From a virus (lineage: Duplodnaviria > Heunggongvirae > Uroviricota > Caudoviricetes): a stretch of DNA of 11,635 bases. Where the stretch lies: the IMG/VR virus record IMGVR_UViG_2660238190_000006; one strand, given 5' to 3'. The notes under the pieces are model-generated. The model was given only the letters and a program-made list of their open reading frames with translations. It did no database searches and was not told the origin of the DNA. The first letter of the stretch is position 1. Each line of letters starts with the position of its first letter. Below are positions 1-11,635 of the stretch, in pieces. The position numbers and the translations under genes are program-made.

Positions 1-1218
1 ATGAACAAACTGAGCGATACCTTGCTAAGGAAACTTCATGGTAAGCCAGCGGAGAAAAACACGTTTTATAGTGATGGCGGAAACCTGAGCGTGAAATATT
101 TAACATCAGGGAAATTGACCTGGTATTTCACATACAGGGCCGGAACGGGAAGGGAGACACGACCCGAACGCATTAAGCTGGGAAGTTATCCTGATCTGAG
201 CCTGAAAGCAGCCAGGGAAAAAGCCGCACAGTGTCGCACATGGCTGGCTGAGGGGAAAAATCCACGTCATGAGATGAATTACACCGTACAGGAAGCGTTA
301 AAGCCCGTAACGGTTGGCGATGCGCTCACCTACTGGCTTGAGTATTACGTAAAGGAAAACCGCGTGGATTATATCGCCCTGAAAAGGCGACTTAATAATC
401 ACGTAATACAGCAGATTGGTGCTATGCCGCTGGATAAATGCGAGCTACGGCACTGGCTGGCCTGTTTTGACCAGGTGGCAAAGCGAACGCCTGTTACTGC
501 CGGATTCGTGCTACAGGCGTGCAAACAGGCGCTTAAGTTCTGCCGTAGGCGGCGCTATGCAATCAGCAACGTTCTGGACGATCTGAACGTGGCGGACGTT
601 GGGAAAAAACCGGATATAAGCGAACGTGTCTTAAGTAACAAAGAACTTGGCGAATTATTGCAGGCACTGGACAAAAAAATATTTTCCCCTTACTACGTCG
701 CGTTAATCCGCCTCCTGATTGTCTTCGGAGCCAGGACGGTAGAACTGAGGCTATCGGAGATCGGGGAGTGGGATTTTACGGAAATGCTATGGACCGTTCC
801 GAAGGAGCACAGCAAAACGAAGGTCGCAATATTCCGGCCCATACCGGAAGCGATCCTGCCGTTCGTCACGCAGCTGGTGGAGCAGAACAGGCACACGGGC
901 TTATTGCTGGGGGAAGTGAAACAGGAGGCCAGCGTATCGCAGTATGGAAGATTAGCGCACAGGAGGCTTAATCATCCTCACTGGTCACTGCATGACATCC
1001 GGCGCACCTTTACAACCATGCTGAACGATTTAGGCGTTGATCCGCATGTCGTGGAGCAGCTTACAGGTCATCAGATGCCAGGAATTCAGCGAGTTTATAA
1101 TCATTCCCGTTATCTGGATGCTAAACGCAATGCGCTGGATATGTGGATGGAGCGGTTAGGGATACTGGCGGGAACACATGAAAACGTAACCACGCTACCA
1201 GTAGCCAGAAGAAAATAA
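1..1218 (+). CDS. int: Tyrosine site-specific integrase, P4-like
   Basis: 405-aa ORF starting at base 1. N-terminus (MNKLSDTLLRKLHGKPAEKNTFYSDGGNLSVKY...WYFTYR) resembles the arm-binding domain of P4-type integrases. C-terminal catalytic signature HDIRRTF...GHQ...RVYNHSRY fits the R..H..R..Y tyrosine recombinase motif. Confidence 0.9.
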   Translation: MNKLSDTLLRKLHGKPAEKNTFYSDGGNLSVKYLTSGKLTWYFTYRAGTGRETRPERIKLGSYPDLSLKAAREKAAQCRTWLAEGKNPRHEMNYTVQEALKPVTVGDALTYWLEYYVKENRVDYIALKRRLNNHVIQQIGAMPLDKCELRHWLACFDQVAKRTPVTAGFVLQACKQALKFCRRRRYAISNVLDDLNVADVGKKPDISERVLSNKELGELLQALDKKIFSPYYVALIRLLIVFGARTVELRLSEIGEWDFTEMLWTVPKEHSKTKVAIFRPIPEAILPFVTQLVEQNRHTGLLLGEVKQEASVSQYGRLAHRRLNHPHWSLHDIRRTFTTMLNDLGVDPHVVEQLTGHQMPGIQRVYNHSRYLDAKRNALDMWMERLGILAGTHENVTTLPVARRK

Positions 1219-1260
1219 TTTTTTTCGTGTTTTTTCAGTATGCGCATACTGGATATGCGA

Positions 1261-1320
1261 ACAGATACAACATGCAACAATGAGCAACAATGAGCAACAA
1301 TGCGGAACAACTACGAACAA
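1261..1320. repeat. Six tandem 10-bp-phased repeats ending in AACAA (two exact TGAGCAACAA units); candidate Int/AlpA (excisionase-like) binding array
   Basis: Seen: acagatacaa / catgcaacaa / tgagcaacaa / tgagcaacaa / tgcggaacaa / ctacgaacaa with strict 10-bp register, in the int-alpA intergenic region. Function is inferred. Confidence 0.6.
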
Positions 1321-1602
1321 GAGACGAAAAAGTGTACGGATTTATAAGTAGCTGATTTTTAATGTGTTACTGGTTTTTTATACACTAGCGAATCACTCTT
1401 TAAATAGCGAGAAAAAAGGCATGAAACAATATTTTATGCCTTTGTATTAACATGAATTTAAATGATTTTATCCTGATTATTCCTGTTTCTGTAAACCATA
1501 CGACCTCAACATTTGCCAACTCTGAATCATCCTGACACAATCAGACACATCCCAACGCAATAGAACACGAAATAACTCTTTAAGAAACGAAAGGGGGCAA
1601 TA

Positions 1603-1791
1603 GTGTTAAGCACTGATCGGTTTATACGTGAAAAAGAATGCGAAAAGCTAACAGGCCTTAGCCGCTCATGCCGCTACCGCCTGGAAAAGGCCGGACAATT
1701 CCCATCACGTCGTAAACTTGGCGGTCGTTCCGTTGGCTGGTCTTTATCCGAGGTTCTGGCCTGGAAGGATAGCTGCAAGGCAGTTCATTAA
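1603..1791 (+). CDS. alpA: AlpA-family (Xis/MerR-like HTH) transcriptional regulator / excisionase-like protein
   Basis: 62-aa ORF with GTG start preceded by AAAGGGGG. Sequence ...KECEKLTGLSRSCRYRLEKAGQFPSRRKLGGRSVGWSLSEVLAWK... matches the AlpA pattern (tG.sr...Y.l...G.FP...lg.rsvgW...ev..W). Typical position immediately downstream of int. Confidence 0.8.
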   Translation: MLSTDRFIREKECEKLTGLSRSCRYRLEKAGQFPSRRKLGGRSVGWSLSEVLAWKDSCKAVH

Positions 1792-1937
1792 TCACGCTGG
1801 CGGCACACAGCCGCCACACATCAATCATCTGAACACAGAGCTATAACCATGAAGATTGAATATACGCCAGAACGTGGGCGGGGATTCGTTCGCCCTGGTG
1901 AGACTGGAAAACCACAAAATTGGGGTTTTTCAGGCAT

Positions 1938-1970
1938 AAAAAAAGCGGCCCCGAAATGGAGCCGCCTTTC
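1938..1970 (-). terminator. Rho-independent terminator between convergent alpA and the minus-strand genes (strongest in minus orientation)
   Basis: Seen: A7-GCGGCC-loop-GCCGCC-TTTC on + strand, so on the minus strand a GC stem is followed by a T7 run. Lies about 95 bp downstream of the minus-strand ORF stop at 2061. Confidence 0.5.
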
Positions 1971-2060
1971 TGAACAGATAACACGCTGCGCCGTTTGTGT
2001 GTGTGATCCCAAACATAAGCACGGGGATGATAGCCGCTATCAGGCTGGTGGGCAATGCAA

Positions 2061-2249
2061 TCAGTCTGGTTCAGTTCGTTGCCATACCTGCAATGAGCGC
2101 TTTTCCCTGTACTCTTTAAGGAATTGCTCAAGGGCAAAAGCACATGGCGCGAATCTTTCTGATTCATGCTCTATCTTTCTGCGCCGTCTTTTCCGTGCCG
2201 GTGATAATGTTTTGGTCAATTCTTTATCGGTCATTGTGTTGTCCTGCAT
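2061..2249 (-). CDS. Small basic hypothetical protein (62 aa; alternative start at 2234 with AGGA RBS)
   Basis: ORF with Arg/Lys-rich stretch ARKRRRRKIEHE. In the same reading frame as the upstream RHH ORF, separated only by a TAA and 14 sense codons. Followed by the 1938-1970 terminator. No family recognised. Confidence 0.4.
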   Translation of the reverse strand: MQDNTMTDKELTKTLSPARKRRRRKIEHESERFAPCAFALEQFLKEYREKRSLQVWQRTEPD

Positions 2250-2291
2250 AGCAATGCGCCGTAATACCTCACACCACGGCGCTGATAGTTT

Positions 2292-2483
2292 TTATCCTTT
2301 GGGTTCTATACCGCGCCGCTTTAGTTCAGTACGCCCCAACTCTTTAAGCCAGTTGGCTAGGCTTATGCCGTCGCTCTGTGCTTCTTTATCGAATTGCTCT
2401 TTTAGCTCTGGAGAAATTCGCATTCTGAATTGTGGGGATTGCCCGTCCCCTTTAGGGCTTTTATCGCGTTTGATTGTTGACAA
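2292..2483 (-). CDS. Ribbon-helix-helix (CopG/Arc-like) DNA-binding protein, antitoxin-like
   Basis: 63-aa ORF with TTG start preceded by GGTGA. Segment FRMRISPELKEQFDKEAQSDGISLANWLKELG fits a beta-strand/helix/helix RHH fold pattern. Call is inferred from pattern only. Confidence 0.5.
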   Translation of the reverse strand: MSTIKRDKSPKGDGQSPQFRMRISPELKEQFDKEAQSDGISLANWLKELGRTELKRRGIEPKG

Positions 2484-2617
2484 GTGGTCACCTATTGAAT
2501 TAGCCTTTCTATTGTTAGGTGGTCACCTTAACACAAGAGCACTTAAAAAAGCAAAGCCCCGCAAGTGTCATTACCACTCGCAGGGCTTCTAACCAACAAC
2601 GTAAACTAGGAGCCGTT

Positions 2618-2815
2618 ATGGTTGCTGTAAATCATATACCACACCTTGTACACACACAAACGGCCTTTGTGTGGCGTTTTCTGGCACTGAGTGCCGGAGA
2701 ATCTCAAATCATCCACGTAACCGCCTGGACGGAACGCGAAGCGCGTAGCCGTTGCCCGTCCGGTTGTGTTGCTGTATTCGCCGCCCGTATTCGTCAGGAG
2801 GTGCGCCATGATTAA
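2618..2815 (+). CDS. Icd-like host cell division inhibitor family small protein (tentative)
   Basis: 65-aa ORF from ATG 2618 with strong RBS AGGAG 5 nt upstream. Sequence MVAVNHIPHLVHTQTAFVWRFLALSAGESQIIHVTAWTEREARSRCPSGCVAVFAARIRQEV resembles, from memory, the Icd-like proteins annotated in P4-like prophages. The 2519 start of the tracked ORF was rejected. Confidence 0.55.
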   Translation: MVAVNHIPHLVHTQTAFVWRFLALSAGESQIIHVTAWTEREARSRCPSGCVAVFAARIRQEVRHD

Positions 2816-3020
2816 TCTGTCACTTACTGACCTTAACCGCATTCAGTTTCGTGAGAAATTCACAGGGCAGCTACTGGTCAATGTGGATAAAGGTCGCGTG
2901 GTGTGTAATTACCACTTACCAGATGAAGCAATTGTCGCCACAAGGGAATCATTACAGGAAATCACAAAACGTGCCGGAATGATTAACACGAATATTCAGG
3001 GGATGCTTTATGCACAATAA
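2808..3020 (+). CDS. Hypothetical protein (70 aa)
   Basis: ATG 2808 overlaps the upstream stop (8-nt overlap) with RBS AGGAGG 7 nt upstream; translationally coupled chain. No family recognised. Confidence 0.6.
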   Translation: MINLSLTDLNRIQFREKFTGQLLVNVDKGRVVCNYHLPDEAIVATRESLQEITKRAGMINTNIQGMLYAQ

Positions 3021-3474
3021 AACCACACCGGACGCAGCCGCCGAAGCCATCAAAACGCTGATGCACGCGCTGATTGATATTTCTGTTATCGCGGACAGGG
3101 CACATAAGCACGCCACCAGCGAAACAGAATATGCCGGTGCTTTCGTTCCTCACTCACTGGCTGTCATGCAATTTAGTGCTGATACGGCGCTGAATGAGGC
3201 CAAAGCTATCCTGATTGCTGATTGTGAAAATGGGGGGGTTATGCGTGATGATCGTTTTAATTCCCTGAAACAGGAATTTACCGGCGTTCCTGATGATGCG
3301 GCTGATGCGCTTTCGTCAATGCCAGAACTTATTAGAGCGGCTTTTTTCTTACTTTCCACGAGAGAATATAAATCAACGGGGCTTGATGTACTGAATATCG
3401 CCGCCGATTATGCGGAATATGTGGCAGAGGCGCGTTATAGAAGAAAATTTCCTGAGGATGTAAGCCATGCGTGA
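3010..3474 (+). CDS. Hypothetical protein (154 aa)
   Basis: ATG overlaps the upstream gene end; RBS CAGGGGA upstream. Alanine-rich, predicted helical. No family recognised. Confidence 0.65.
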   Translation: MHNKTTPDAAAEAIKTLMHALIDISVIADRAHKHATSETEYAGAFVPHSLAVMQFSADTALNEAKAILIADCENGGVMRDDRFNSLKQEFTGVPDDAADALSSMPELIRAAFFLLSTREYKSTGLDVLNIAADYAEYVAEARYRRKFPEDVSHA

Positions 3475-3700
3475 TATTTACCACCAAACAATAGACCGCG
3501 CATTTCTTGCACTTTCTCACAGTGAAAACATGCTGGAAATATTGCGCATATGGCTTGAAACACTTGGCGACAATGAACGCGACAAACAAAAATCAAGAAT
3601 TGCCACGGCATTAATAACGCTTCTTGAGCCTGTAATAATGGAACTGCAAGAAATAGATCTATTGCACGACAGATATAAAGAACAGCACACCGGAGAATAA
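3467..3700 (+). CDS. Hypothetical protein (77 aa)
   Basis: ATG 3467 overlaps the upstream stop (ATGCGTGA); RBS GAGGA 8 nt upstream. No family recognised. Confidence 0.6.
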   Translation: MRDIYHQTIDRAFLALSHSENMLEILRIWLETLGDNERDKQKSRIATALITLLEPVIMELQEIDLLHDRYKEQHTGE

Positions 3701-3705
3701 AAATA

Positions 3706-4005
3706 ATGAAACTTAAATATTCTGGCTTAACTGCCAGTGGCAACACTCACCCTAAATTTACGCGCGGTGATATTTACCGCGACCAGTACGGCGGCACGGT
3801 AATGATTAAGGGCGTGGAAGAACGGCGCGTAACCTACCGCCGTGAAGGTTACGAATATGATTGCGTGATGCCTGTTTATCAGTTCCGGCGTGATTTTTCT
3901 CTGGTACAGACCGCGCCGCATAACGTGCCCACCAGCAACGCCAGGGCACGGGCAAACATCCAGAAGCTGAAAACCATGGTTAACGGATTCAGGGGCAAGA
4001 AATGA
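3706..4005 (+). CDS. Hypothetical protein (99 aa)
   Basis: RBS GGAGA about 10 nt upstream; stop overlaps the replicase start (ATGA). No family recognised. Confidence 0.6.
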   Translation: MKLKYSGLTASGNTHPKFTRGDIYRDQYGGTVMIKGVEERRVTYRREGYEYDCVMPVYQFRRDFSLVQTAPHNVPTSNARARANIQKLKTMVNGFRGKK

Positions 4006-5402
4006 AAAGCGCACCGAACTTAAAAAAACAGCCTTACGACAAGATGACCGAAGTCATCATTTTTGCGGGTAGTGATGCGTGGGCACATGCGAAACAGTGG
4101 CAGGAACAGGACGGGCGACTGGCTGGCGATAATGTGCCTCCCATTGTGCTGGCTGATGATCAACTGGATGAACTGGCAGACCTGAGAATCATCGACGAGG
4201 GGCGCTATTGTGTCCGGCTGTACAAGGCAGGCCACATCAGGCCATCAAATATTAATGCCATTGCGCACAAGCTGGCGGCGGCGGGCGTAACTGATGCGAA
4301 TTATTACCCCGAAGGGATGCACAGCCATATGCGGGAGAACTGGCGCGAATACCTGGAACGGGTGCGCGGGAAAGAGCCGGCGGAAGAAAAAAACCACCAG
4401 CGAAAAACCACGCTACCGATGAGCGTTGGATCTACCGGATACGACACGCAACTGGATTACGTGGTTAAGGGGATTATTCCGGCGGTATCGCTATGCAGCA
4501 TATACGGGGCTAGCGGGTCCTATAAATCATTCCTTGCCGGATCGTGGGCGTGCCATGTTGCCACTGGTCGCCAGTGGGGAGGCCGCAGGGTTGCACATGG
4601 TGCGGTTCTCTATGTGGTTGGTGAAGGCGGTATAGGTGTTCCGCGTCGTGTAAAAGCCTGGGAGGTTGTGCACGATGAGCAGGTGAAAAATCTGTATCTG
4701 GTAAACCGCCCCATCTTTCCGGCTGCCCCGCTTGATGTTGATGAAATGGTTATCGCTGCCCGTCAGGTGGAGCGGGAAACGGGTAAACCTGTACGCATGA
4801 TTATTCTGGATACGCTGGCGCGTTGCTTTGGTGGGAATGATGAAAATGATTCCCGTGATATGGGGGCGTTTATCCGTGGTTGTGACGAACTGAAACGACG
4901 CACAGGGGCCACGGTGCTGGTGGTTCACCATTCCGGCAAGGATGAGACGAAAGGCGCGCGCGGTTCCAGTGCATTTCGTGCTTCGCTGGATGCTGAATAC
5001 CGGATACGCAGGGAGGACGCAGGAAGCGAAGCGCTGGTTATCTCATGCACCAAAATGAAGGACGCGGAGGAACTCAAAGAAGCCGCATATGACTTACGCG
5101 TGGTGGAGCTTTTTACCGACGCTGACGGTGAATTAATCACGTCGCTGGTGGTGGTGGATGATCCGCGCCCTCCTGTTGAACTGGAGCGCATCGAGGAGGC
5201 AGGGAACAAGACGGAAAACCATACCGCGCTATGGGGGTGCATCCGTTCACGCACACAGAACGGCGACAAGTGCACGATCCAGATGTTACGTGATGACATG
5301 AAAAAGCTGGGGTATGAAATGAAAAACTTCCGGCGCTGGCTGTACAAGCTGGAAAAAGATGGGGTTATTCGTATCGATGGGGATGATGTAGCGCCGCTAT
5401 AA
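4002..5402 (+). CDS. Replication protein: RecA/DnaB-like P-loop ATPase (RepA/AAA_25-type helicase) with an N-terminal domain of unknown function
   Basis: 466-aa ORF. Walker A GASGSYKS (in IYGASGSYKSFLAG), Walker B-like hydrophobic-D stretch MIILDTLARCFGG, and HHSGKD (sensor-like) typical of RepA/DnaB-family replicative ATPases found in satellite pri-rep modules. Iteron cluster lies immediately downstream. Confidence 0.8.
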   Translation: MKSAPNLKKQPYDKMTEVIIFAGSDAWAHAKQWQEQDGRLAGDNVPPIVLADDQLDELADLRIIDEGRYCVRLYKAGHIRPSNINAIAHKLAAAGVTDANYYPEGMHSHMRENWREYLERVRGKEPAEEKNHQRKTTLPMSVGSTGYDTQLDYVVKGIIPAVSLCSIYGASGSYKSFLAGSWACHVATGRQWGGRRVAHGAVLYVVGEGGIGVPRRVKAWEVVHDEQVKNLYLVNRPIFPAAPLDVDEMVIAARQVERETGKPVRMIILDTLARCFGGNDENDSRDMGAFIRGCDELKRRTGATVLVVHHSGKDETKGARGSSAFRASLDAEYRIRREDAGSEALVISCTKMKDAEELKEAAYDLRVVELFTDADGELITSLVVVDDPRPPVELERIEEAGNKTENHTALWGCIRSRTQNGDKCTIQMLRDDMKKLGYEMKNFRRWLYKLEKDGVIRIDGDDVAPL

Positions 5403-5593
5403 AAGTGAGGAGCAAAAGCGAGGGGGATAGAAAGAGGGCCAAAATTAGCCCGCTCCCCCTCACTTTTCGACCTGTATACATCCTCAAAAGTGAGGGGTAA
5501 AAAAATACTTATGAAACACACACATAGAAAAACCGAAAATCCCAACTGCGACGAAGTGAGACGCTTGAAAAAGTGAGGCGAAAAAGTGAGAGG
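5401..5593. promoter_or_regulatory. Iteron cluster (AAAGTGAGG repeats, both orientations) with an AT-rich spacer; putative replication origin and/or operator
   Basis: Seen: AAAAGTGAGG at 5401-5410, inverted copy at 5455-5467, AAAAGTGAGGGG 5486-5497, GAAGTGAGAC 5553-5562, AAAAAGTGAGG 5568-5578, AAAAAGTGAGAGG 5581-5593, plus degenerate AAAGCGAGGGGGA 5415-5427. An AT-rich tract at 5497-5545 lies between copies. Position directly 3' of the replicase gene is typical for satellite/PICI origins (inference). Confidence 0.55.
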
Positions 5594-5602
5594 TTGCGAG
5601 AA

Positions 5603-5854
5603 ATGACCCAAAAACGCAGAGACAGAACAGAGCCAAAATATAAAGCGTTAGACATGACTGAGCACACCTTAAAGGTGGCAATCAGAACGATAGACCGCCA
5701 CACGCGGGAAGGATACGCGAAGGAACATCCCGACCTGATAAGCGCATTCATGACCACGGCGGCGGCAAACTTTGCCACGCTGACAGAACGGGAGATTGCC
5801 GAAGCGGAACAGGTAACAACCATCAACGTTAAAACCGGAGAGTTGGAATCATGA
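5603..5854 (+). CDS. Hypothetical protein (83 aa)
   Basis: ATG 5603 with RBS GAGAGG (inside the last iteron); the tracked ORF's upstream start at 5573 lies within the iterons and was rejected. No family recognised. Confidence 0.55.
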   Translation: MTQKRRDRTEPKYKALDMTEHTLKVAIRTIDRHTREGYAKEHPDLISAFMTTAAANFATLTEREIAEAEQVTTINVKTGELES

Positions 5855-6156
5855 GCGAACCAAAATTTGGTGAAAAACTTTACAAGCACAACGGACGGAT
5901 CACGATTCAGCAAATAAGCGCAGCTACACCAGGCTGGTGGGTTGAAACAGACGAAGGATCCTCACCCGTGGCATCATGGGCGCTTTGTGTGCTTAGTTAC
6001 CCTGACCGCGATGTGTATCAGGATATTCTGCCTGTGATATCCACTGATAAAGGCATGAAGCCCGTAGACATCAAAAACATGGGTTTTCAGTGCGTAATGC
6101 TCACTGAAAAAATGATGGAAGAGATGAAAAAGAACAACGCCGGATCGCTTCACTGA
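5851..6156 (+). CDS. Hypothetical protein (101 aa)
   Basis: ATGA overlap with the upstream gene; RBS GGAGAG 9 nt upstream. No family recognised. Confidence 0.6.
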   Translation: MSEPKFGEKLYKHNGRITIQQISAATPGWWVETDEGSSPVASWALCVLSYPDRDVYQDILPVISTDKGMKPVDIKNMGFQCVMLTEKMMEEMKKNNAGSLH

Positions 6157-6165
6157 GGTGGCAAT

Positions 6166-6576
6166 ATGACAGCACAAATTGCAGCTTACGGGCGGCTGGT
6201 GGACGACCCGCAGGTAAAACAGACCAGCAAGGGTACACCGATGACGCTGGCGCGTATGGCGGTATCGCTGCCATGCAGCCAGGCACAGGATGGACAGGCG
6301 ACGTTATGGCTATCGGTCATCGCATTTGGTAAGCAGGCCGACTTCCTGGCTAAACATCAAAAAGGCGACGTTGCCAGCGTATCCGGCACGATGCAGGTCA
6401 GCCAGTGGACCGGACAGAACGGGGAAACGCGGCAGGGTTATCAGGTTATTGCAGACAGCGTAATCAGTGCCCGTGCGGCACGTCCTGGTGGGAGCCGACG
6501 CAAGACCACAGGCACACAGGGTAATCAGCCACCAGCGGGAGGCGATGACCCTTACGGTGATGATATTCCGTTCTGA
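6166..6576 (+). CDS. ssb: Single-stranded DNA-binding protein (SSB-like)
   Basis: 136-aa ORF. OB-fold-like N-terminal region, Gly/Gln/Pro-rich linker and C-terminal acidic tip DDPYGDDIPF, matching the conserved DDDIPF tail of bacterial SSB. RBS GAGGTGG upstream. Confidence 0.75.
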   Translation: MTAQIAAYGRLVDDPQVKQTSKGTPMTLARMAVSLPCSQAQDGQATLWLSVIAFGKQADFLAKHQKGDVASVSGTMQVSQWTGQNGETRQGYQVIADSVISARAARPGGSRRKTTGTQGNQPPAGGDDPYGDDIPF

Positions 6577-6588
6577 GGGGTGGGGACG

Positions 6589-6861
6589 ATGGTACATGAC
6601 CGCATAGCGGAAGAACTGGAGGCGAAAGGCTTTTACCGGAGAGCGTCGGCGCGATGGGGTGAAGTCATGCAACTGGTGGAGACAGACAAGGAACGGCATC
6701 ACATCACGATGCGACGGCTGGAATGTTCCAGGAAGGCACAGAGGCCACCGGAGCCGCCGGATAATTACGGAGACCTGAAAAAGGCGGTCGATCGCACTTA
6801 TGCCGAAATGGGTATGGATGGTGCTGGTGATGAAATATGGCGAAATTACCAGGACAGATAA
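6589..6861 (+). CDS. PerC-family-like transcriptional activator (tentative)
   Basis: About 90-aa ORF. AEELEAKGFYRRASARWGEVM resembles the PerC/Pch N-terminal signature (LE..G.WRRAA..W) as remembered. ATG 6589 with GAGGGG RBS is preferred over GTG 6580. Followed by a terminator. Confidence 0.5.
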   Translation: MVHDRIAEELEAKGFYRRASARWGEVMQLVETDKERHHITMRRLECSRKAQRPPEPPDNYGDLKKAVDRTYAEMGMDGAGDEIWRNYQDR

Positions 6862-6867
6862 TCACAC

Positions 6868-6890
6868 AGCCGGAGCAATCCGGCTTTTTG
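6868..6890 (+). terminator. Rho-independent terminator after the PerC-like gene
   Basis: Seen: AGCCGGA-GCAA-TCCGGCT stem-loop followed by TTTTT. Confidence 0.65.
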
Positions 6891-6918
6891 TCATGTTTTG
6901 TAAATTATTTGTTCGTGG

Positions 6919-6933
6919 TTGTTCCACGTTGTT
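6919..6933. repeat. 15-mer TTGTTCCACGTTGTT (copy 1) within three tandem TTGTTC-containing decamers
   Basis: Seen: exact 15-mer shared with 11370-11384. Local context tatTTGTTCgtggTTGTTCcacgTTGTTCgctg. Confidence 0.5.
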
Positions 6934-7111
6934 CGCTGACCGGATCGGCATATTTTACCCGAACTGAATCATGATTATTCTCGCCCGTGGTGCCAGGACG
7001 CTGGGGCCACTTTCCCGCCTGTTAATGTGCCCGCCAATATTCATTACCAGGCGGGAAAACGATCGGTGCGATTGCTGATTTCCTTATGAAAAACGGTTGA
7101 GTGTTTGCCGC

Positions 7112-7148
7112 GTCCTGGAGTTCCTTACTTAACTTCAGGACTTTTTTT
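7112..7148 (+). terminator. Strong intrinsic terminator/attenuator hairpin ending in T7, directly abutting the capsid start codon and sequestering its RBS
   Basis: Seen: 11-bp stem GTCCTGGAGTT (7112-7122) pairing with AACTTCAGGAC (7131-7141), one G-U pair, 8-nt loop, then TTTTTTT (7142-7148), then ATG at 7149. The AGGA RBS (7137-7140) is inside the 3' arm. Confidence 0.6.
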
Positions 7149-8306
7149 ATGCCGAGAATAATCGAATTACGCCAGCAGAAAACCGCCATTAAAAATCAGA
7201 TGCGCGACATGCTGGAGAACGCGGAAAAAGAAAACCGCAGCCTTAACGATGCTGAGGGCGCAAAATTTGACGAATTACGCGCTAAAGCTGAATCCCTCGA
7301 TAAAGACATCTCCCGCCTTGAGGCCGTTGCTGACGAAGAGCGCAGTAAACCAGGCAAAAACAGCCAGACCACTGACCCCGCCGAACTACGTCACTACATT
7401 CTGACAGGTGAAACCCGCGCATTGAGTACAGGCGTTCCCGCTGATGGTGGTTATACCGTTATCCCCGAACTGAACACCGAAATCATGCGAATGCTGACGG
7501 ATGAATCCACCATGCGCCGCATCTGTACCGTGAAGAAAATCAGCAGCAACGAGTTTAAGCAGCTTGTTTCCGCTGGCGGTGCGACCGTTAACCACGGTGA
7601 AGAGGGTAAGGCACGCGAACAGACCAGCACCCCGCAGATTAACGAGGTGAGCATTAAGCTGTATCCGGTCTATGCGTACCCGCGCACCACGCAGGAAATC
7701 GTGGATTTTTCCGATGTGGACATCCTTTCATGGCTGACGGGCGAGATTGGCGACACCTTCACGGAAACCGAAGAAAGCGATCTGGTTGTGGGCGACGGTG
7801 ACAAAAAAGCAAAAGGCTTTTTATCCGTACCCCGTGCAGAGAAGAACGACAAAGAGCGTGATTTTGGTACGTTGCAGGTAATTAAACCTTCCGAATCTCT
7901 GGCGTGGACATCTGCGGACCCGCTGATCGACCTGAAATTTGCATTACGTAAAAAATACCGCAAAAACGCGGTCTGGGTGGTTAACTCCACGACGGCGGCA
8001 AAACTCCAGAAGGTGAAGAACGCGAACGGTGATTACATCTGGCGTGACCGTTTACAGGCGGGTGATCCTGATACGTTGCTGGGCCTTCCGGTCGAATATC
8101 TGGAGTTTATGCCGGATAACGTTATTGCCCTGGGTGACTTCAAACGCGGTTACTACATTGTTGATCACGAAACAGGTGTTCGCACCAGACCGGACAACCT
8201 CACAGAGCCGGGCTTCATCAAAATTTTCGCGCAGAAATATTTAGGCGGTGGCGTGGTGGATTCGAACGCGATCAAGATTCTGGAACTGCCACAGGACGAC
8301 GATTAA
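7149..8306 (+). CDS. Major capsid protein, HK97 fold, with N-terminal coiled-coil scaffold (delta-like) domain
   Basis: N-terminal coiled coil RIIELRQQKTAIKNQMRDMLENAEKENRSLNDAEGAKFDELRAKAESLDKDISRLEAV matches the HK97-family MCP delta-domain pattern. GDGDKKAKGFLS fits the conserved G.G...p.Gil region. Start 7149 chosen over GTG 7101; start is uncertain. Confidence 0.85.
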   Translation: MPRIIELRQQKTAIKNQMRDMLENAEKENRSLNDAEGAKFDELRAKAESLDKDISRLEAVADEERSKPGKNSQTTDPAELRHYILTGETRALSTGVPADGGYTVIPELNTEIMRMLTDESTMRRICTVKKISSNEFKQLVSAGGATVNHGEEGKAREQTSTPQINEVSIKLYPVYAYPRTTQEIVDFSDVDILSWLTGEIGDTFTETEESDLVVGDGDKKAKGFLSVPRAEKNDKERDFGTLQVIKPSESLAWTSADPLIDLKFALRKKYRKNAVWVVNSTTAAKLQKVKNANGDYIWRDRLQAGDPDTLLGLPVEYLEFMPDNVIALGDFKRGYYIVDHETGVRTRPDNLTEPGFIKIFAQKYLGGGVVDSNAIKILELPQDDD

Positions 8307-8316
8307 CAGCATACAG

Positions 8317-8345
8317 AAGGGGCTTAAAAGCCCCTTTAGTGTTTT
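8317..8345 (+). terminator. Hairpin (partial terminator/attenuator) between capsid and protease genes
   Basis: Seen: AAGGGGC-loop-GCCCCTT followed by T-rich TAGTGTTTTA. Could tune capsid versus protease expression (inference). Confidence 0.4.
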
Positions 8346-8918
8346 ATGGGTGAAAAAATTATGAAGAGTATGGAAATCCGGTCATCGGAAATCACCACCA
8401 GCGGAGCCGGTACGCTGACGGGCTACATTGTTCGCTGGGATAAGCTTTCAGAACTGTTATGGGGTGAGTTTTACGAAAAATTCCAGCGGGGGGCGTTTAC
8501 TGAATGGCTTGCGGCGGGTAATGACGTTCGCGGCCTGTATGAGCATGACCACAGCATGTTACTGGGGCGCACCCGTTCCGGCACGCTGAAACTGGAAGAG
8601 GACGAAACAGGGTTACGCTTTGAACTGACCCCACCGGATACCAGTACAGGGCGCGACGTTATCGAACTGGTTAAACGAGGTGATATATCCGGCATGAGCT
8701 TTGGCTTTCGTTCCCGTAAGGATGTATGGGATACCACAACAGATCCATGCGTGCGCACCGTGCTGGTGGCGGAACTGTACGAAATTACCGTTACATCCGT
8801 ACCGGCTTACCCTGATTCCGACGTGGAGCTGGCCCGCCGTTCCCTGTATGAGCAGCACCCCGAAAAAATGCCGCGTGCGGATAATCGCCGCTGGTGGGCG
8901 GATTTAGCGGGGGTGTGA
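8346..8918 (+). CDS. Prohead maturation protease, HK97 family (S78/U35-like)
   Basis: Motifs GYIVRWDKLSELLWGEFYEKFQRGAF, LYEHDHSMLLGRT, GLRFELTPPDTSTGRDVIELVKRGDISGMSFGF and YEITVTSVPAYPDS match the HK97 prohead protease family pattern. Start may instead be ATG 8361 or 8370. Confidence 0.85.
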   Translation: MGEKIMKSMEIRSSEITTSGAGTLTGYIVRWDKLSELLWGEFYEKFQRGAFTEWLAAGNDVRGLYEHDHSMLLGRTRSGTLKLEEDETGLRFELTPPDTSTGRDVIELVKRGDISGMSFGFRSRKDVWDTTTDPCVRTVLVAELYEITVTSVPAYPDSDVELARRSLYEQHPEKMPRADNRRWWADLAGV

Positions 8919-10438
8919 TATGTGGCCTTTCCAGGGTGTGCCCGCACGTAAAAGGGCCGATGCGTGGCAGACCCATTGAGCTGGAGCCGTGGCAGCAGTT
9001 CGCCTTTGCGTGCATCCTCGGCTTTAAGGTTAAGGCCACCGGACGGCGCAAATACACGAGCGCCTTTATCGAAGTGCCGCGCAAAAATGCGAAATCCACG
9101 ACCGCCGCGATTCTGGCTAACTGGTTTCTGATTATGGAGAACGGTCAGCAGGATATCTACACCGCAGCGGTGAGCCGTGACCAGGCGCGGATCGTCTTTG
9201 ATGATGCGCGTCAGATGTGCCTTTTATCCCGACCGTTACGCAGGCGGGTGAATATTCAGGCGCATAAGGTGATGCACCCGAAAAGCAACAGCCTGTTAAA
9301 GCCGCTGGCAGCAAAAGCGGCAACCATCGAGGGAACAAACCCCAGCCTTTCCATCGTGGACGAATACCACTTGCACCCCGATAACGGCGTTTATTCCGCG
9401 CTTGAGCTGGGGATGGGCGCACGCCCCGAAGGGCTGTTATTTGCTATTACCACATCAGGCAGTAACGTCGTTTCAGCCTGTAAGCAGCACTATGATTATT
9501 GCTGCCAGATCCTGGACGGCGAAGAGGTCAACGATTCAATTTTTGTACTGATTTACGAACTGGACGACGAAAACGAGGTTGATGATCCGGCGATGTGGAT
9601 AAAGGCGAACCCTAATATTGATGTTTCCGTGGATCGTGAAAAACTGGCCTCAACCATCCAGAAAGCGCGGGGTATTCCGTCGCAGTGGGTGGAGATGATG
9701 ACAAAGCGATTTAATATCTGGTGCCAGGGGGCTACCCCGTGGATGGGTAACGGCGCATGGGCTGAGTGTGCCGGAACGTTCACGGAGGAAGATTTACACG
9801 GCCAGGAGTGTTACGCGGGGCTGGACTTATCATCAACCAGCGATATTTCCAGCGTGTGCTATGCCTTTCCGGTCGGTAAAACCATTATGCTGGTTTCCCG
9901 TCACTATCTGCCGGAATTTCAGCTACAGAACCCCGCCAATAAAAACCGCGCCATCTATCGTCAGTGGGCTAAAGCAGGCTGGATACGCACAACGCCTGGC
10001 GACTGCATTGATTACGACCGGATCAGAGATGACATCATGCAGGACGCGGAGAAATTTAATATCAGGCTGGTGGGCTTTGATACGTGGAACGCCACGCATC
10101 TCAGAACGCAATTACAGGGGGCAGGTTTTGAGGTGGAGCCGTTCCCGCAAACCTACCTCAGATTCAGTCCGGCGGCGAAATCGTTCGAAGTTTTTGTTAA
10201 CCGCAGGGTGATTGTGCATCGTGGCGATCCGGTGTTGTCCTGGTCGATGAGTAACGTCGTGATGCAGAGTGACGCGAACGCCAATATCAAGCCGAACAAG
10301 AAAAAATCACCGAACAAGATAGACCCGAGCGTGGCGGCGCTGATGGCGTTTGGTACATTCCAGGCAGAGCATGAGGATTTTGCTTTTGATATAAGCGACA
10401 GCCACCGCCAGAAACTGGAAGAATTTAGCGGGGTGTAA
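8894..10438 (+). CDS. Terminase large subunit (Terminase_1 / COG4626-type), with a short N-terminus
   Basis: Motifs recognised: LEPWQQF; P-loop EVPRKNAKSTTAA; AAVSRDQARIVF; Walker B SIVDEYHLH; ITTSG; WIKANPNIDVSV; GLDLSSTSD; C-terminal KPNKKKSPNKIDPSVAALMAF. Start ambiguous (GTG 8894 overlapping the protease end, GTG 8936, or ATG 8960). Confidence 0.85.
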   Translation: MGGFSGGVICGLSRVCPHVKGPMRGRPIELEPWQQFAFACILGFKVKATGRRKYTSAFIEVPRKNAKSTTAAILANWFLIMENGQQDIYTAAVSRDQARIVFDDARQMCLLSRPLRRRVNIQAHKVMHPKSNSLLKPLAAKAATIEGTNPSLSIVDEYHLHPDNGVYSALELGMGARPEGLLFAITTSGSNVVSACKQHYDYCCQILDGEEVNDSIFVLIYELDDENEVDDPAMWIKANPNIDVSVDREKLASTIQKARGIPSQWVEMMTKRFNIWCQGATPWMGNGAWAECAGTFTEEDLHGQECYAGLDLSSTSDISSVCYAFPVGKTIMLVSRHYLPEFQLQNPANKNRAIYRQWAKAGWIRTTPGDCIDYDRIRDDIMQDAEKFNIRLVGFDTWNATHLRTQLQGAGFEVEPFPQTYLRFSPAAKSFEVFVNRRVIVHRGDPVLSWSMSNVVMQSDANANIKPNKKKSPNKIDPSVAALMAFGTFQAEHEDFAFDISDSHRQKLEEFSGV

Positions 10439-10451
10439 TGAGGTCAGCAGC

Positions 10452-10733
10452 ATGACAGAAGCCGAAATAACGGGATTAATCCGCCGCGTTGCCGGAATCA
10501 GCCAGCAGGCTGACGAACAGGCCACGCAGCCGGACAGCGTGACAGCCGAAAACTATGCGCGTGTTGTTGCTGAGGTGATGCGCCGTGATGGTATAGAACT
10601 TAATGGCGTGGATATGCGCAACATACGAACCAGAGCTCTTGAGTTGCTGGCCTACCGTCGCCGCGTGGAGATGTATCGGGAGAAGGAGAAAATAACGTAC
10701 CACTGGAAGAAGCCGGAGCGGTTGCGGCGGTAA
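10452..10733 (+). CDS. Hypothetical protein (93 aa) downstream of TerL
   Basis: ATG with RBS GAGGT 8 nt upstream, 13 nt after the TerL stop. Possibly a head-completion/connector-like or packaging accessory protein, but no family recognised. Confidence 0.55.
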   Translation: MTEAEITGLIRRVAGISQQADEQATQPDSVTAENYARVVAEVMRRDGIELNGVDMRNIRTRALELLAYRRRVEMYREKEKITYHWKKPERLRR

Positions 10734-11026
10734 CTGGTTGATATTCCCGACGGACCAAAAATGGGTGGCTACATCCCTCGCTTCTGAGGACTGTTAACAA
10801 GCTGCCTGAAAGACAGTCACAAACTACGAAATTTTCGCAGTTTAATTAATGATCAGCTTAATCGCTAACCCGCTGATATTTTCGGAAACCTCAATTTGAG
10901 GAAGTCGGCGCGGTAACTCGCTGAACTTTAAGCAAAGTGCAAAATTGCGCTTGCTGAATAATCATTATGATTACGCAGATGATTAAGGAATGACCGAAGG
11001 CGGAAATTCGCCTGTGGTTAATGGGG

Positions 11027-11170
11027 GAGTTGCAGATCTGCAACTCGACCATGAAACTACGGAAACTACCCGTAGTTTGGGTAGTAAGAGTAACACCCAG
11101 ATTTTGGGTCTTACTCGTGATACCCAAATTTGGGGTATCAGTGGCAACCATAACGACTTTCGTTACGGTT
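11027..11170. other. Array of five consecutive perfect or near-perfect palindromes/hairpins in non-coding DNA (candidate packaging site, operator array or structured RNA)
   Basis: Seen: 20-bp perfect palindrome GAGTTGCAGATCTGCAACTC (11027-11046); hairpin AAACTACGG/CCGTAGTTT (11054-11078); ACCCAGATTTTGGGT (11095-11109) with flanking GAGTAA/TTACTC; GATACCCAAATTTGGGGTATC (11119-11139); AACCATAACG/CGTTACGGTT (11146-11170). Confidence 0.5.
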
Positions 11171-11369
11171 GATGCTTTTACCCCATTGGGGGAAAGGTAT
11201 TACGATAATCATAACACCTACCGAACAGGTAAAGCCCACCAGCCTGATTAACGTTTAACCGGAAAAAAATTCCGGTAGGTGGGGATCCCCATATCGACAT
11301 TAACGCCCCTCATGAATTGGTGCGCTTCCCCCTGGAAAGATGATCCGCCTGTATATTTCTTGTGTCTAT

Positions 11370-11384
11370 TTGTTCCACGTTGTT
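11370..11384. repeat. 15-mer TTGTTCCACGTTGTT (copy 2)
   Basis: Seen: exact match to 6919-6933; shared TATTTGTTC prefix as well. Confidence 0.5.
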
Positions 11385-11470
11385 TCATACAGTGCACCGA
11401 ACGGTGTAGTCACTGGTGTAGTCATTTTGCGATTTTTGGCACTTTTTGCGGTGAAAATTATTTAATTAAA

Positions 11471-11635
11471 TCAACGTGTTATGTGAAATAAGTTATATAT
11501 AACAGCAATAAATAATGCGAGAATAAACGGCACGATGATCTCGGCGGCAAAACGGATACCGCAGAGAATAATGACCAGCATTCCCAACATAATGACGATT
11601 TTTAGGCCATTGAGCGTGATGATCGGCTTTGCCAT
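11471..11635 (-). pseudogene. tqsA: 5' fragment (54 codons) of an AI-2E-family transporter gene (TqsA/YdgG-like), apparently truncated at the island junction
   Basis: Minus-strand ORF starting at the last base of the window: [54 protein letters not shown]. The N-terminal 45 or so residues match my recollection of E. coli TqsA; the ORF then diverges and stops. It is shorter than 60 aa, so absent from the supplied track. Confidence 0.45.

Follow-up and report, generated by a model that had tools for sequence, protein, structure and literature searches.

The stretch of DNA analysed here (IMG/VR record IMGVR_UViG_2660238190_000006, 11,635 nt, referred to in the following as the window) carries most of a phage satellite. 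With a probability of about 0.93 we read it as a capsid-forming phage-inducible chromosomal island (cf-PICI) of the EcCIEDL933 family that is inserted in the tqsA gene, has been damaged by an internal deletion of ~3,044 bp and is decaying. Judged by its sequence, its compact head module is composed of a major capsid protein (MCP) gene, a protease gene and a 5'-truncated gene for the large terminase (TerL) joined over a deletion scar. The original prediction had taken this minimal head module of ~3.3 kb as a possible mark of a distinct, undescribed satellite lineage. That interpretation is not supported: ~3,044 bp have been deleted, comprising six genes together with terL's 5' end. The minimal head module reflects decay and not a new kind of satellite, and what we see is a known, previously described family in degraded form rather than a new lineage. 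For the coordinates of all features see Table 1.

The genes of the window were assigned from a listing of its open reading frames (ORFs) together with profile searches in Pfam and PHROG, in which 20 ORFs were scanned. The searches confirmed, far above chance, the predicted integrase, AlpA, RepA-type replicase, single-stranded DNA-binding protein (SSB), MCP, protease and TerL.

To place the element among its relatives, 5,426 complete genomes of Escherichia coli were searched. Sixty-nine of them have a place that covers at least 80% of the window, with up to 8 matching places per genome. The top matches all span ~15 kb and each of them is annotated with a portal protein. We inspected 23 full-length relatives including EcCIEDL933, which together represent four chromosomal sites and three replicase types. 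In all 23 the MCP and protease genes are followed by genes for a portal, a head closure protein, a connector, an HNH protein, a 60-aa ORF, the small terminase (TerS), TerL and a 93-aa protein. This is the published order of proteobacterial cf-PICIs (capsid, protease, portal and head connectors, then hnh, terS and terL, in an island of 15.4 kb), which counts for a deletion in the window. The best match (L001, NZ_CP024127) reads MCP, protease, portal, an IS1 element, head closure, head-tail connector, HNH, 60-aa ORF, a P27-family TerS, a TerL of 553 aa and the 93-aa gene.

In blastn alignments all 23 relatives follow the window until position 8931 and pick it up again at position 8925, with 3,042-3,044 bp in between (3.8 kb in L001, owing to the IS1 insertion). 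The short sequence GCCTTT occurs at both parental sites of the junction. The junction itself reads ...GTGTGATATGTGGCCTTT directly followed by CCAGGGTGTGCCC..., so that the ATG and three further codons of the portal gene are joined out of frame to codon ~50 of terL. The frame starting with the portal ATG at 8920 runs for 19 codons through TerL sequence and ends with a TGA at 8977-8979. The sequence ATGTGGCCTTTCCAGGGTG identifies the junction.

The removed block comprises the portal gene (403 aa in all relatives) except for four codons, the genes for the head-closure/adaptor protein and the head-tail connector (PF05521 and PF05135), the genes for HNH (PF01844) and TerS (PF05119), the 60-aa ORF corresponding to gene 1792 of EcCIEDL933, and the first 49 codons of terL. 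The packaging module of cf-PICIs consists of nine genes (10.1101/2025.02.11.637232). Two of them are intact in the window (MCP and protease), one is truncated (terL) and six are lost. The MCP contains the maturation motif STGVPAD, matching the described SxGxxAD motif (10.1101/2025.02.11.637232), and 523 blocks of the collection list a 385-aa protein identical to it. The predicted possession of an own head module is therefore correct for MCP and protease; for TerL it has to be restricted, since this gene is truncated and its native start is gone.

Together with its 49 N-terminal codons, terL has lost its native TTG start, which lies 147 nt before the breakpoint in L001, and its ribosome-binding context. 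Both domains of the protein are intact. The ORF that was called as TerL (8894-10438) begins with a GTG at 8894 inside the protease gene and contains TerL sequence only from position ~8932. Gene callers assign to the truncated gene either 514 aa, starting from this GTG, or 492 aa, starting from an internal ATG at 8960. Residue 46 of the full-length protein is the first to align with the structure of HK97 TerL (PDB-entry 6Z6D). The truncated gene thus keeps the catalytic core, which explains why the Pfam domains look complete.

The boundaries of the element were set by a comparison of the draft assembly GCA_000948005.1 (L015; contig JRLM01000034.1, of which positions 1042-12676 are 100% identical to the window) with the empty tqsA site of E. 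coli K-12. The element is an insertion of 11,685 bp near codon 46 of tqsA, the gene of the AI-2 exporter, in agreement with the ~11.5 kb originally predicted for the island. It is bounded by the 9-bp repeat ATAACAGCA, which is present as a single copy in the empty site of K-12 and as one copy at each end of the element in L015. The left copy is located 187-195 bp upstream of the window start, and the left end of the element 187 bp upstream of it. A 33-bp direct repeat, GTGCACCGAACGGTGTAGTCACTGGTGTAGTCA, with a tandem GGTGTAGTCA motif is found just inside both element ends; the other copy is situated outside the window, 38-70 bp upstream of its start (L015 972-1004). Both copies are probably arm-type binding sites of the integrase. 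Directly outside the element follow the host genes pntAB on one side and mdtJI on the other, so that nothing phage-like is hidden beyond the window. The att site is located inside tqsA and not in a tRNA gene, and a tRNA scan of the window found none.

The prototype of the cf-PICIs is EcCIEDL933 from E. coli O157:H7 EDL933 (Alqurainy et al., bioRxiv 10.1101/2022.09.08.507074). For the comparison we used its locus from the EDL933 chromosome, between roxA and phoQ. The gene order of EcCIEDL933 and the window is the same, and 11 of the 17 window ORFs compared show 91-99% identity at the amino acid level. In the left part the identities are 98.4% for AlpA, 99.2% for a 247-aa ORF, 98.5% for SSB and 90.9% for the integrase; in the head module they are 98.7% for the MCP, 96.8% for the protease and 98.0% for TerL (residues 11-514 of the window ORF). 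By these values the element is a close relative of the prototype and is of the cf-PICI type rather than a P4-like satellite or a classical PICI, as had been predicted. Common to both elements is the series int, alpA, small genes, DUF4222, replicase, SSB, PerC, MCP and protease and, further downstream, TerL and the 93-aa gene; both are devoid of tail and lysis genes. The 3,044 bp that EcCIEDL933 possesses and the window lacks hold the portal, head closure/adaptor, connector and HNH genes, gene 1792, terS and terL's 5' end. The two also differ in the replicase, which is a DUF927 primase in EcCIEDL933 and a RepA-type AAA_25 helicase in the window. This difference fits module swapping among relatives. 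Finally, they differ in the integration site (roxA-phoQ versus tqsA) and in size (15.4 kb versus 11.7 kb).

Closer relatives are found among the intact cf-PICIs in tqsA. For example, L001 and L022 (ED1a, CU928162) have the same att site and the same right end as the window, with 98-99.9% nucleotide identity. Unlike the window, these islands keep the nine-gene packaging module and a TerL of 553 aa. L004, the example for the left half, matches the window at 99.89% identity over 6.3 kb in the replication and head-left region.

Across the loci L004-L014 and L020-L030, near-identical head and packaging modules are paired with three replicase types: the RepA AAA_25 helicase, D5_N-type primases of 582-605 aa (some with an additional Pox_D5 domain) and the DUF927 primase. 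At least four integration sites are used, namely tqsA, roxA-phoQ, rcnR-thiM and cspD-clpS. Such shared head modules with differing replicases and sites show extensive module shuffling among E. coli cf-PICIs.

Classical Gram-negative PICIs such as EcCICFT073 and EcCIED1a and P4-like satellites remodel or redirect the capsids of their helper phages (by Rpp, and by Sid and Psu, respectively). To our knowledge they encode no MCP, protease or TerL of their own. They share with the window a P4-type integrase, AlpA, a replication module and the small size. The window does not fit the definition of a classical Gram-negative PICI, as it has its own MCP and protease and a remnant of TerL and no TerS (Rpp was not specifically sought). 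A P4-like satellite was considered as well and rejected: among the 20 ORFs there was no Pfam or PHROG match to Psu, Sid, delta, epsilon or the alpha-primase, and the replicase is a RepA AAA_25 protein. For cf-PICIs, a size of ~10-18 kb and the absence of tail and lysis genes have been described as criteria (10.1101/2025.02.11.637232). The element, with its 11,685 bp, lies within this range, and no tail or lysis gene was detected among the window ORFs by the ORF listing, Pfam or PHROG. It further has the integrase, an AlpA-type regulator, a replication module, its own HK97-type MCP and protease, and it descends from the family. Its own portal, the head-tail adaptor and connector, HNH and the small terminase are missing. 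By hand count the element contains at most 6 of the 11 SatelliteFinder components (int, alpA, replicase, capsid, protease and terL), so the cf-PICI quorum of at least 9 of 11 (thresholds from PMC10085698) is not reached.

These results have some practical value in annotation work. An internally deleted cf-PICI can pass for a novel 'minimal' satellite, and by hand count such a copy falls under the SatelliteFinder quorum for its own family. In biological terms it matters little, as it is one more mobile element that is decaying in the chromosome after the loss of transfer.

The distribution of the junction was examined with a 551-nt query that spans it. Among 517 complete genomes of E. coli that carry this protease-portal region, not one covers the query; all alignments stop at the breakpoint. 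A scan for the exact junction yielded nothing in a one-genome-per-species collection or in the JGI metagenomes. By an exact-protein look-up, the truncated TerL was found on six contigs only, among them those of GCA_000948005.1, DRR576449, SRR30640790, SRR28735533 and SRR26857947. One of the contigs with the truncated TerL has a length of 1.9 kb and no host flank. L015, L016, L002 (SRR28735533) and L003 (SRR26857947) share an 8-kb host flank with 100% identity, compared to 98.3-99.6% for most other strains. The identical flank points to vertical inheritance in one clone.

L002 and L003 contain the same portal-terL junction and, in addition, further independent deletions. In L002 the deletion corresponds to window positions 2033-7878 and takes out the greater part of the sequence downstream of alpA, up to and including the MCP gene's 5' part. 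In L003 it corresponds to positions 4439-7661, beginning within repA, most of which is gone, and likewise ending in the MCP gene after its 5' part. Both additional junctions are clean, with microhomologies of 2-7 bp. The pattern of nested deletions in the window, L002 and L003 is one of progressive erosion, with no sign of selection for a 'minimal' head module. The three form a small natural series that shows how quickly a disabled satellite erodes.

In strain GCA_028652915.1 (L026) the 8-kb host flank differs from that of the window by 1 base (99.99% identity), and the tqsA site holds an intact and clearly different cf-PICI with 96.7% nucleotide identity in the MCP region and a D5-type primase. 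This suggests that the island was replaced, or recombined internally, in a nearly identical host background.

According to the published work, the cycle of a cf-PICI starts with the activation of alpA by a helper phage, upon which excision and replication of the island follow. A small T=4 capsid is then built from the island's own MCP, protease, portal and connectors. TerS, TerL and HNH package the island DNA from cos, and tails of the helper phage are added. In the packaging module of EcCIEDL933, mutation of each tested gene abolished transfer (with a severe reduction in the case of gene 1792), replication was unaffected, and homologues of the helper phage did not compensate for the mutations.

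Based on the comparison with the intact relatives we propose the following fate for the window element. The ~3,044 bp would have been lost by illegitimate recombination between the two GCCTTT microhomologies. The element probably remains capable of induction, excision and replication, as its left half with int, alpA, repA and its iterons, and ssb is intact. MCP and protease could at most form empty procapsids without a portal, as can be expected from expression experiments with gp4 and gp5 of HK97. Packaging of its own DNA and joining to helper tails would no longer be possible, leaving the element immobile by the cf-PICI route and decaying in place. By analogy with the EcCIEDL933 mutants, no helper-induced transfer is predicted.

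Some points limit this reading of a disabled element confined to one clone. Two other 492-aa TerL variants (P0010 and P0012), which differ from that of the window in 3-4 residues, are present in NCBI drafts of E. coli (records EED0951394.1, EEY2985012.1, EEQ1838767.1 and EFI4265904.1). In view of these variants, the truncation may extend beyond one clone; they could stem from the same deletion on a different background or from 5' truncations that arose independently. MCP and protease remain intact ORFs, as does what is left of terL, which fits a recent deletion and does not prove the loss of all function. The loss of cos with the deleted block is probable by analogy with HK97-type systems, in which cos is located between hnh and terS.

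If cos were located outside the deleted block, the element could be a defective derivative for which an intact cf-PICI in the same cell provides packaging in trans. A mapped position of cos was sought in two papers on cf-PICIs and not found there (10.1101/2022.09.08.507074; 10.1101/2025.02.11.637232). With 11.7 kb the element has ~76% of the 15.4-kb unit length and might still fit into the T=4 capsid. We regard this mobilization as very unlikely. All carriers inspected have the element at the same site and those with a host flank share an identical one, which points to vertical inheritance; sister strains keep losing replication and capsid genes; and a cos site between hnh and terS, as in HK97, would be inside the deleted block. 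There is accordingly only a slim chance that the derivative is more than merely dead, with cos retained and the other 492-aa TerL variants in draft genomes being further copies elsewhere. If true, it would be a parasite of the satellite, similar to a defective-interfering element. It is highly improbable, too, that the window represents a functional, distinct minimal satellite which builds capsids with only MCP and protease of its own, uses its TerL and borrows portal, connectors, TerS and HNH from the helper. In line with this idea, MCP, protease and the larger part of TerL persist as intact ORFs whose Pfam domains are full, and int, alpA, repA and the replication origin are intact, too. However, two genes are interrupted by the junction, and terL has no start codon left. 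The head genes are 97-99% identical to those of standard cf-PICIs and thus lack the divergence expected of a separate lineage. The absence of the junction from the 517 complete genomes, the single flank shared by the flanked carriers, some of which have also lost repA and the MCP gene's 5' end, and the failure of helper homologues to replace the packaging genes of EcCIEDL933 also argue against a working minimal satellite.

A mis-join in the draft assembly GCA_000948005.1 might be suspected as the origin of the deletion, the more so with up to 8 matching places in an E. coli genome. The same junction is present with 99.9-100% identity in the independent assemblies DRR576449, SRR30640790, SRR28735533 and SRR26857947, which makes an artefact extremely improbable. 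The chance is similarly minute that the locus is a decayed prophage remnant with tail and portal genes just outside the window, an outcome that the original prediction had named as a possible refutation. The HK97-type head genes are indeed derived from phages, and the locus is indeed decayed. The 9-bp att duplication lies inside tqsA, however, with pntB and mdtJ immediately outside, and not one of the 23 intact relatives has tail or lysis genes. The locus lacks the missing genes altogether; they are not hidden beyond the window, and the element descends from a cf-PICI and not from a prophage. A near-identity search in phage records gave two matches, which cover terL only (78-79% identity), so that the element is not a known phage.

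Table 1. Features of the window, with positions counted from its first nucleotide.
Feature	Position	Strand	Basis
Tyrosine integrase, P4-type arm-binding and catalytic domains	1-1218	+	PF13356, PF00589, phrog_1
10-bp overlapping tandem repeat, ACAATGAGCA-like	1267-1306		Repeat search; int-alpA intergenic region
AlpA, regulator/excisionase-type helix-turn-helix protein	1603-1791	+	PF05930 5e-18
Conserved 247-aa ORF	1849-2592	+	Hypothetical protein of EcCIEDL933 (identity see text)
Icd-like small protein, 65 aa	2618-2815	+	Homologous CDS of L001 and of L020 (EcCIEDL933) annotated 'host cell division inhibitor Icd-like'
Four small conserved genes, 70/154/77/99 aa, the last DUF4222	2808-4005	+	PHROG 340, 2512, 2196, 285; PF13973
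RepA-family AAA_25 helicase, 466 aa, replication initiator/helicase	4002-5402	+	PF13481 2.4e-43; phrog_2850 2.7e-266
Iteron cluster, putative replication origin	5401-5612		AAAAGTGAGG x6; repeat families found by repeat search
Two small genes, 83 and 101 aa	5603-6156	+	phrog_1231, phrog_27268; also in L004, L009, L013
SSB	6166-6576	+	PF00436 4e-17
PerC-family transcriptional activator, 90 aa	6589-6861	+	PF06069 3e-43
HK97-fold MCP, 385 aa, intact	7149-8306	+	PF05065 1.1e-61
S78 prohead maturation protease, 190 aa, intact	8346-8918	+	PF04586 2.5e-48
Portal remnant, ATG and three codons	8920-8931	+	Window compared with L001; blastn breakpoints
Deletion junction, GCCTTT(C) microhomology	8925-8931		~3,044 bp of full-length relatives gone
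5'-truncated terL, codons ~50-553 of 553	8932-10438	+	TerL_ATPase 1.1e-25, TerL_nuclease 8.9e-51
Conserved 93-aa gene	10452-10733	+	phrog_1561 1.9e-55; after terL in every cf-PICI locus inspected
Sub-terminal repeat GTGCACCGAACGGTGTAGTCACTGGTGTAGTCA	11392-11424		blastn of both element ends in L015
Right att core ATAACAGCA	11499-11507		L015 compared with K-12; element end at 11498
tqsA 5' fragment, host gene	11499-11635	-	Translation matches K-12 TqsA residues 1-46; tqsA annotated as pseudogene in L001

The left half of the element contains the genes for integration, regulation and replication. The two domains of the integrase were recognized with E-values of 1.4e-18 (Arm-DNA-bind_3) and 1e-15 (Phage_integrase). 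Gene callers place its start 12 nt upstream of the window, resulting in a protein of 409 aa in L015. The intergenic region between int and alpA has a low GC content (0.39-0.40). The ACAATGAGCA-like repeats in this region are probably regulatory and may be sites for a regulator that controls induction. In cf-PICIs AlpA is the inducer switched on by the helper, and a mutation of alpA abolishes induction and transfer of EcCIEDL933, as shown in the published work on this island.

Downstream of alpA, cf-PICIs carry a variable gene of unknown function according to the cf-PICI papers. In the window this position is occupied by the 247-aa ORF, which has no match in Pfam, PHROG or PADLOC and an odd composition rich in Cys, Ser and Arg. 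Two antisense ORFs (2061-2249 and 2292-2483, both on the minus strand) overlap with it and gave weak Arc/HicB-like and phrog_21027 matches, the HicB/Arc-like ones specifically from 2292-2483. Given this overlap, the coding assignment of the 247-aa ORF is uncertain. An ORF that overlaps the Icd-like gene matches phrog_1743/29966. The series of four small genes (70, 154, 77 and 99 aa) recurs in L004 and L015.

The homologue of RepA is annotated in the relatives as 'helicase RepA family protein'. The predicted combination of this replicase with iterons was confirmed: AAAAGTGAGG occurs in 6 copies (5 direct, 1 inverted) at 5401-5591 compared to 0.76 expected, and 6 copies were reached in none of 200 shuffles. 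No match to an Rfam family was obtained in the window at gathering thresholds. With relaxed thresholds the region 1200-3100 yielded weak, sub-threshold matches alone, which we take as chance. A PADLOC search of ten accessory ORFs gave no match to a defence system.

Irregularities were also noticed in the packaging modules of other cf-PICIs. In L001 the IS1 element (13271-13968) is located between the portal and the head closure gene. In L006 (11756-11944) the portal call is shortened or split, and in L025 (13322-13927) a gene of the HNH region is called as 201 aa, with no HNH match on record. Such damage or gene-call irregularities may indicate that decay of the packaging module is common.

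Upstream of the head operon, the intergenic region between the PerC and MCP genes contains a 17-bp inverted repeat (7011-7058; TTTCCCGCCTG...CAGGCGGGAAA) with 94% complementarity and a loop of 14 nt. It may serve as a terminator or in regulation.

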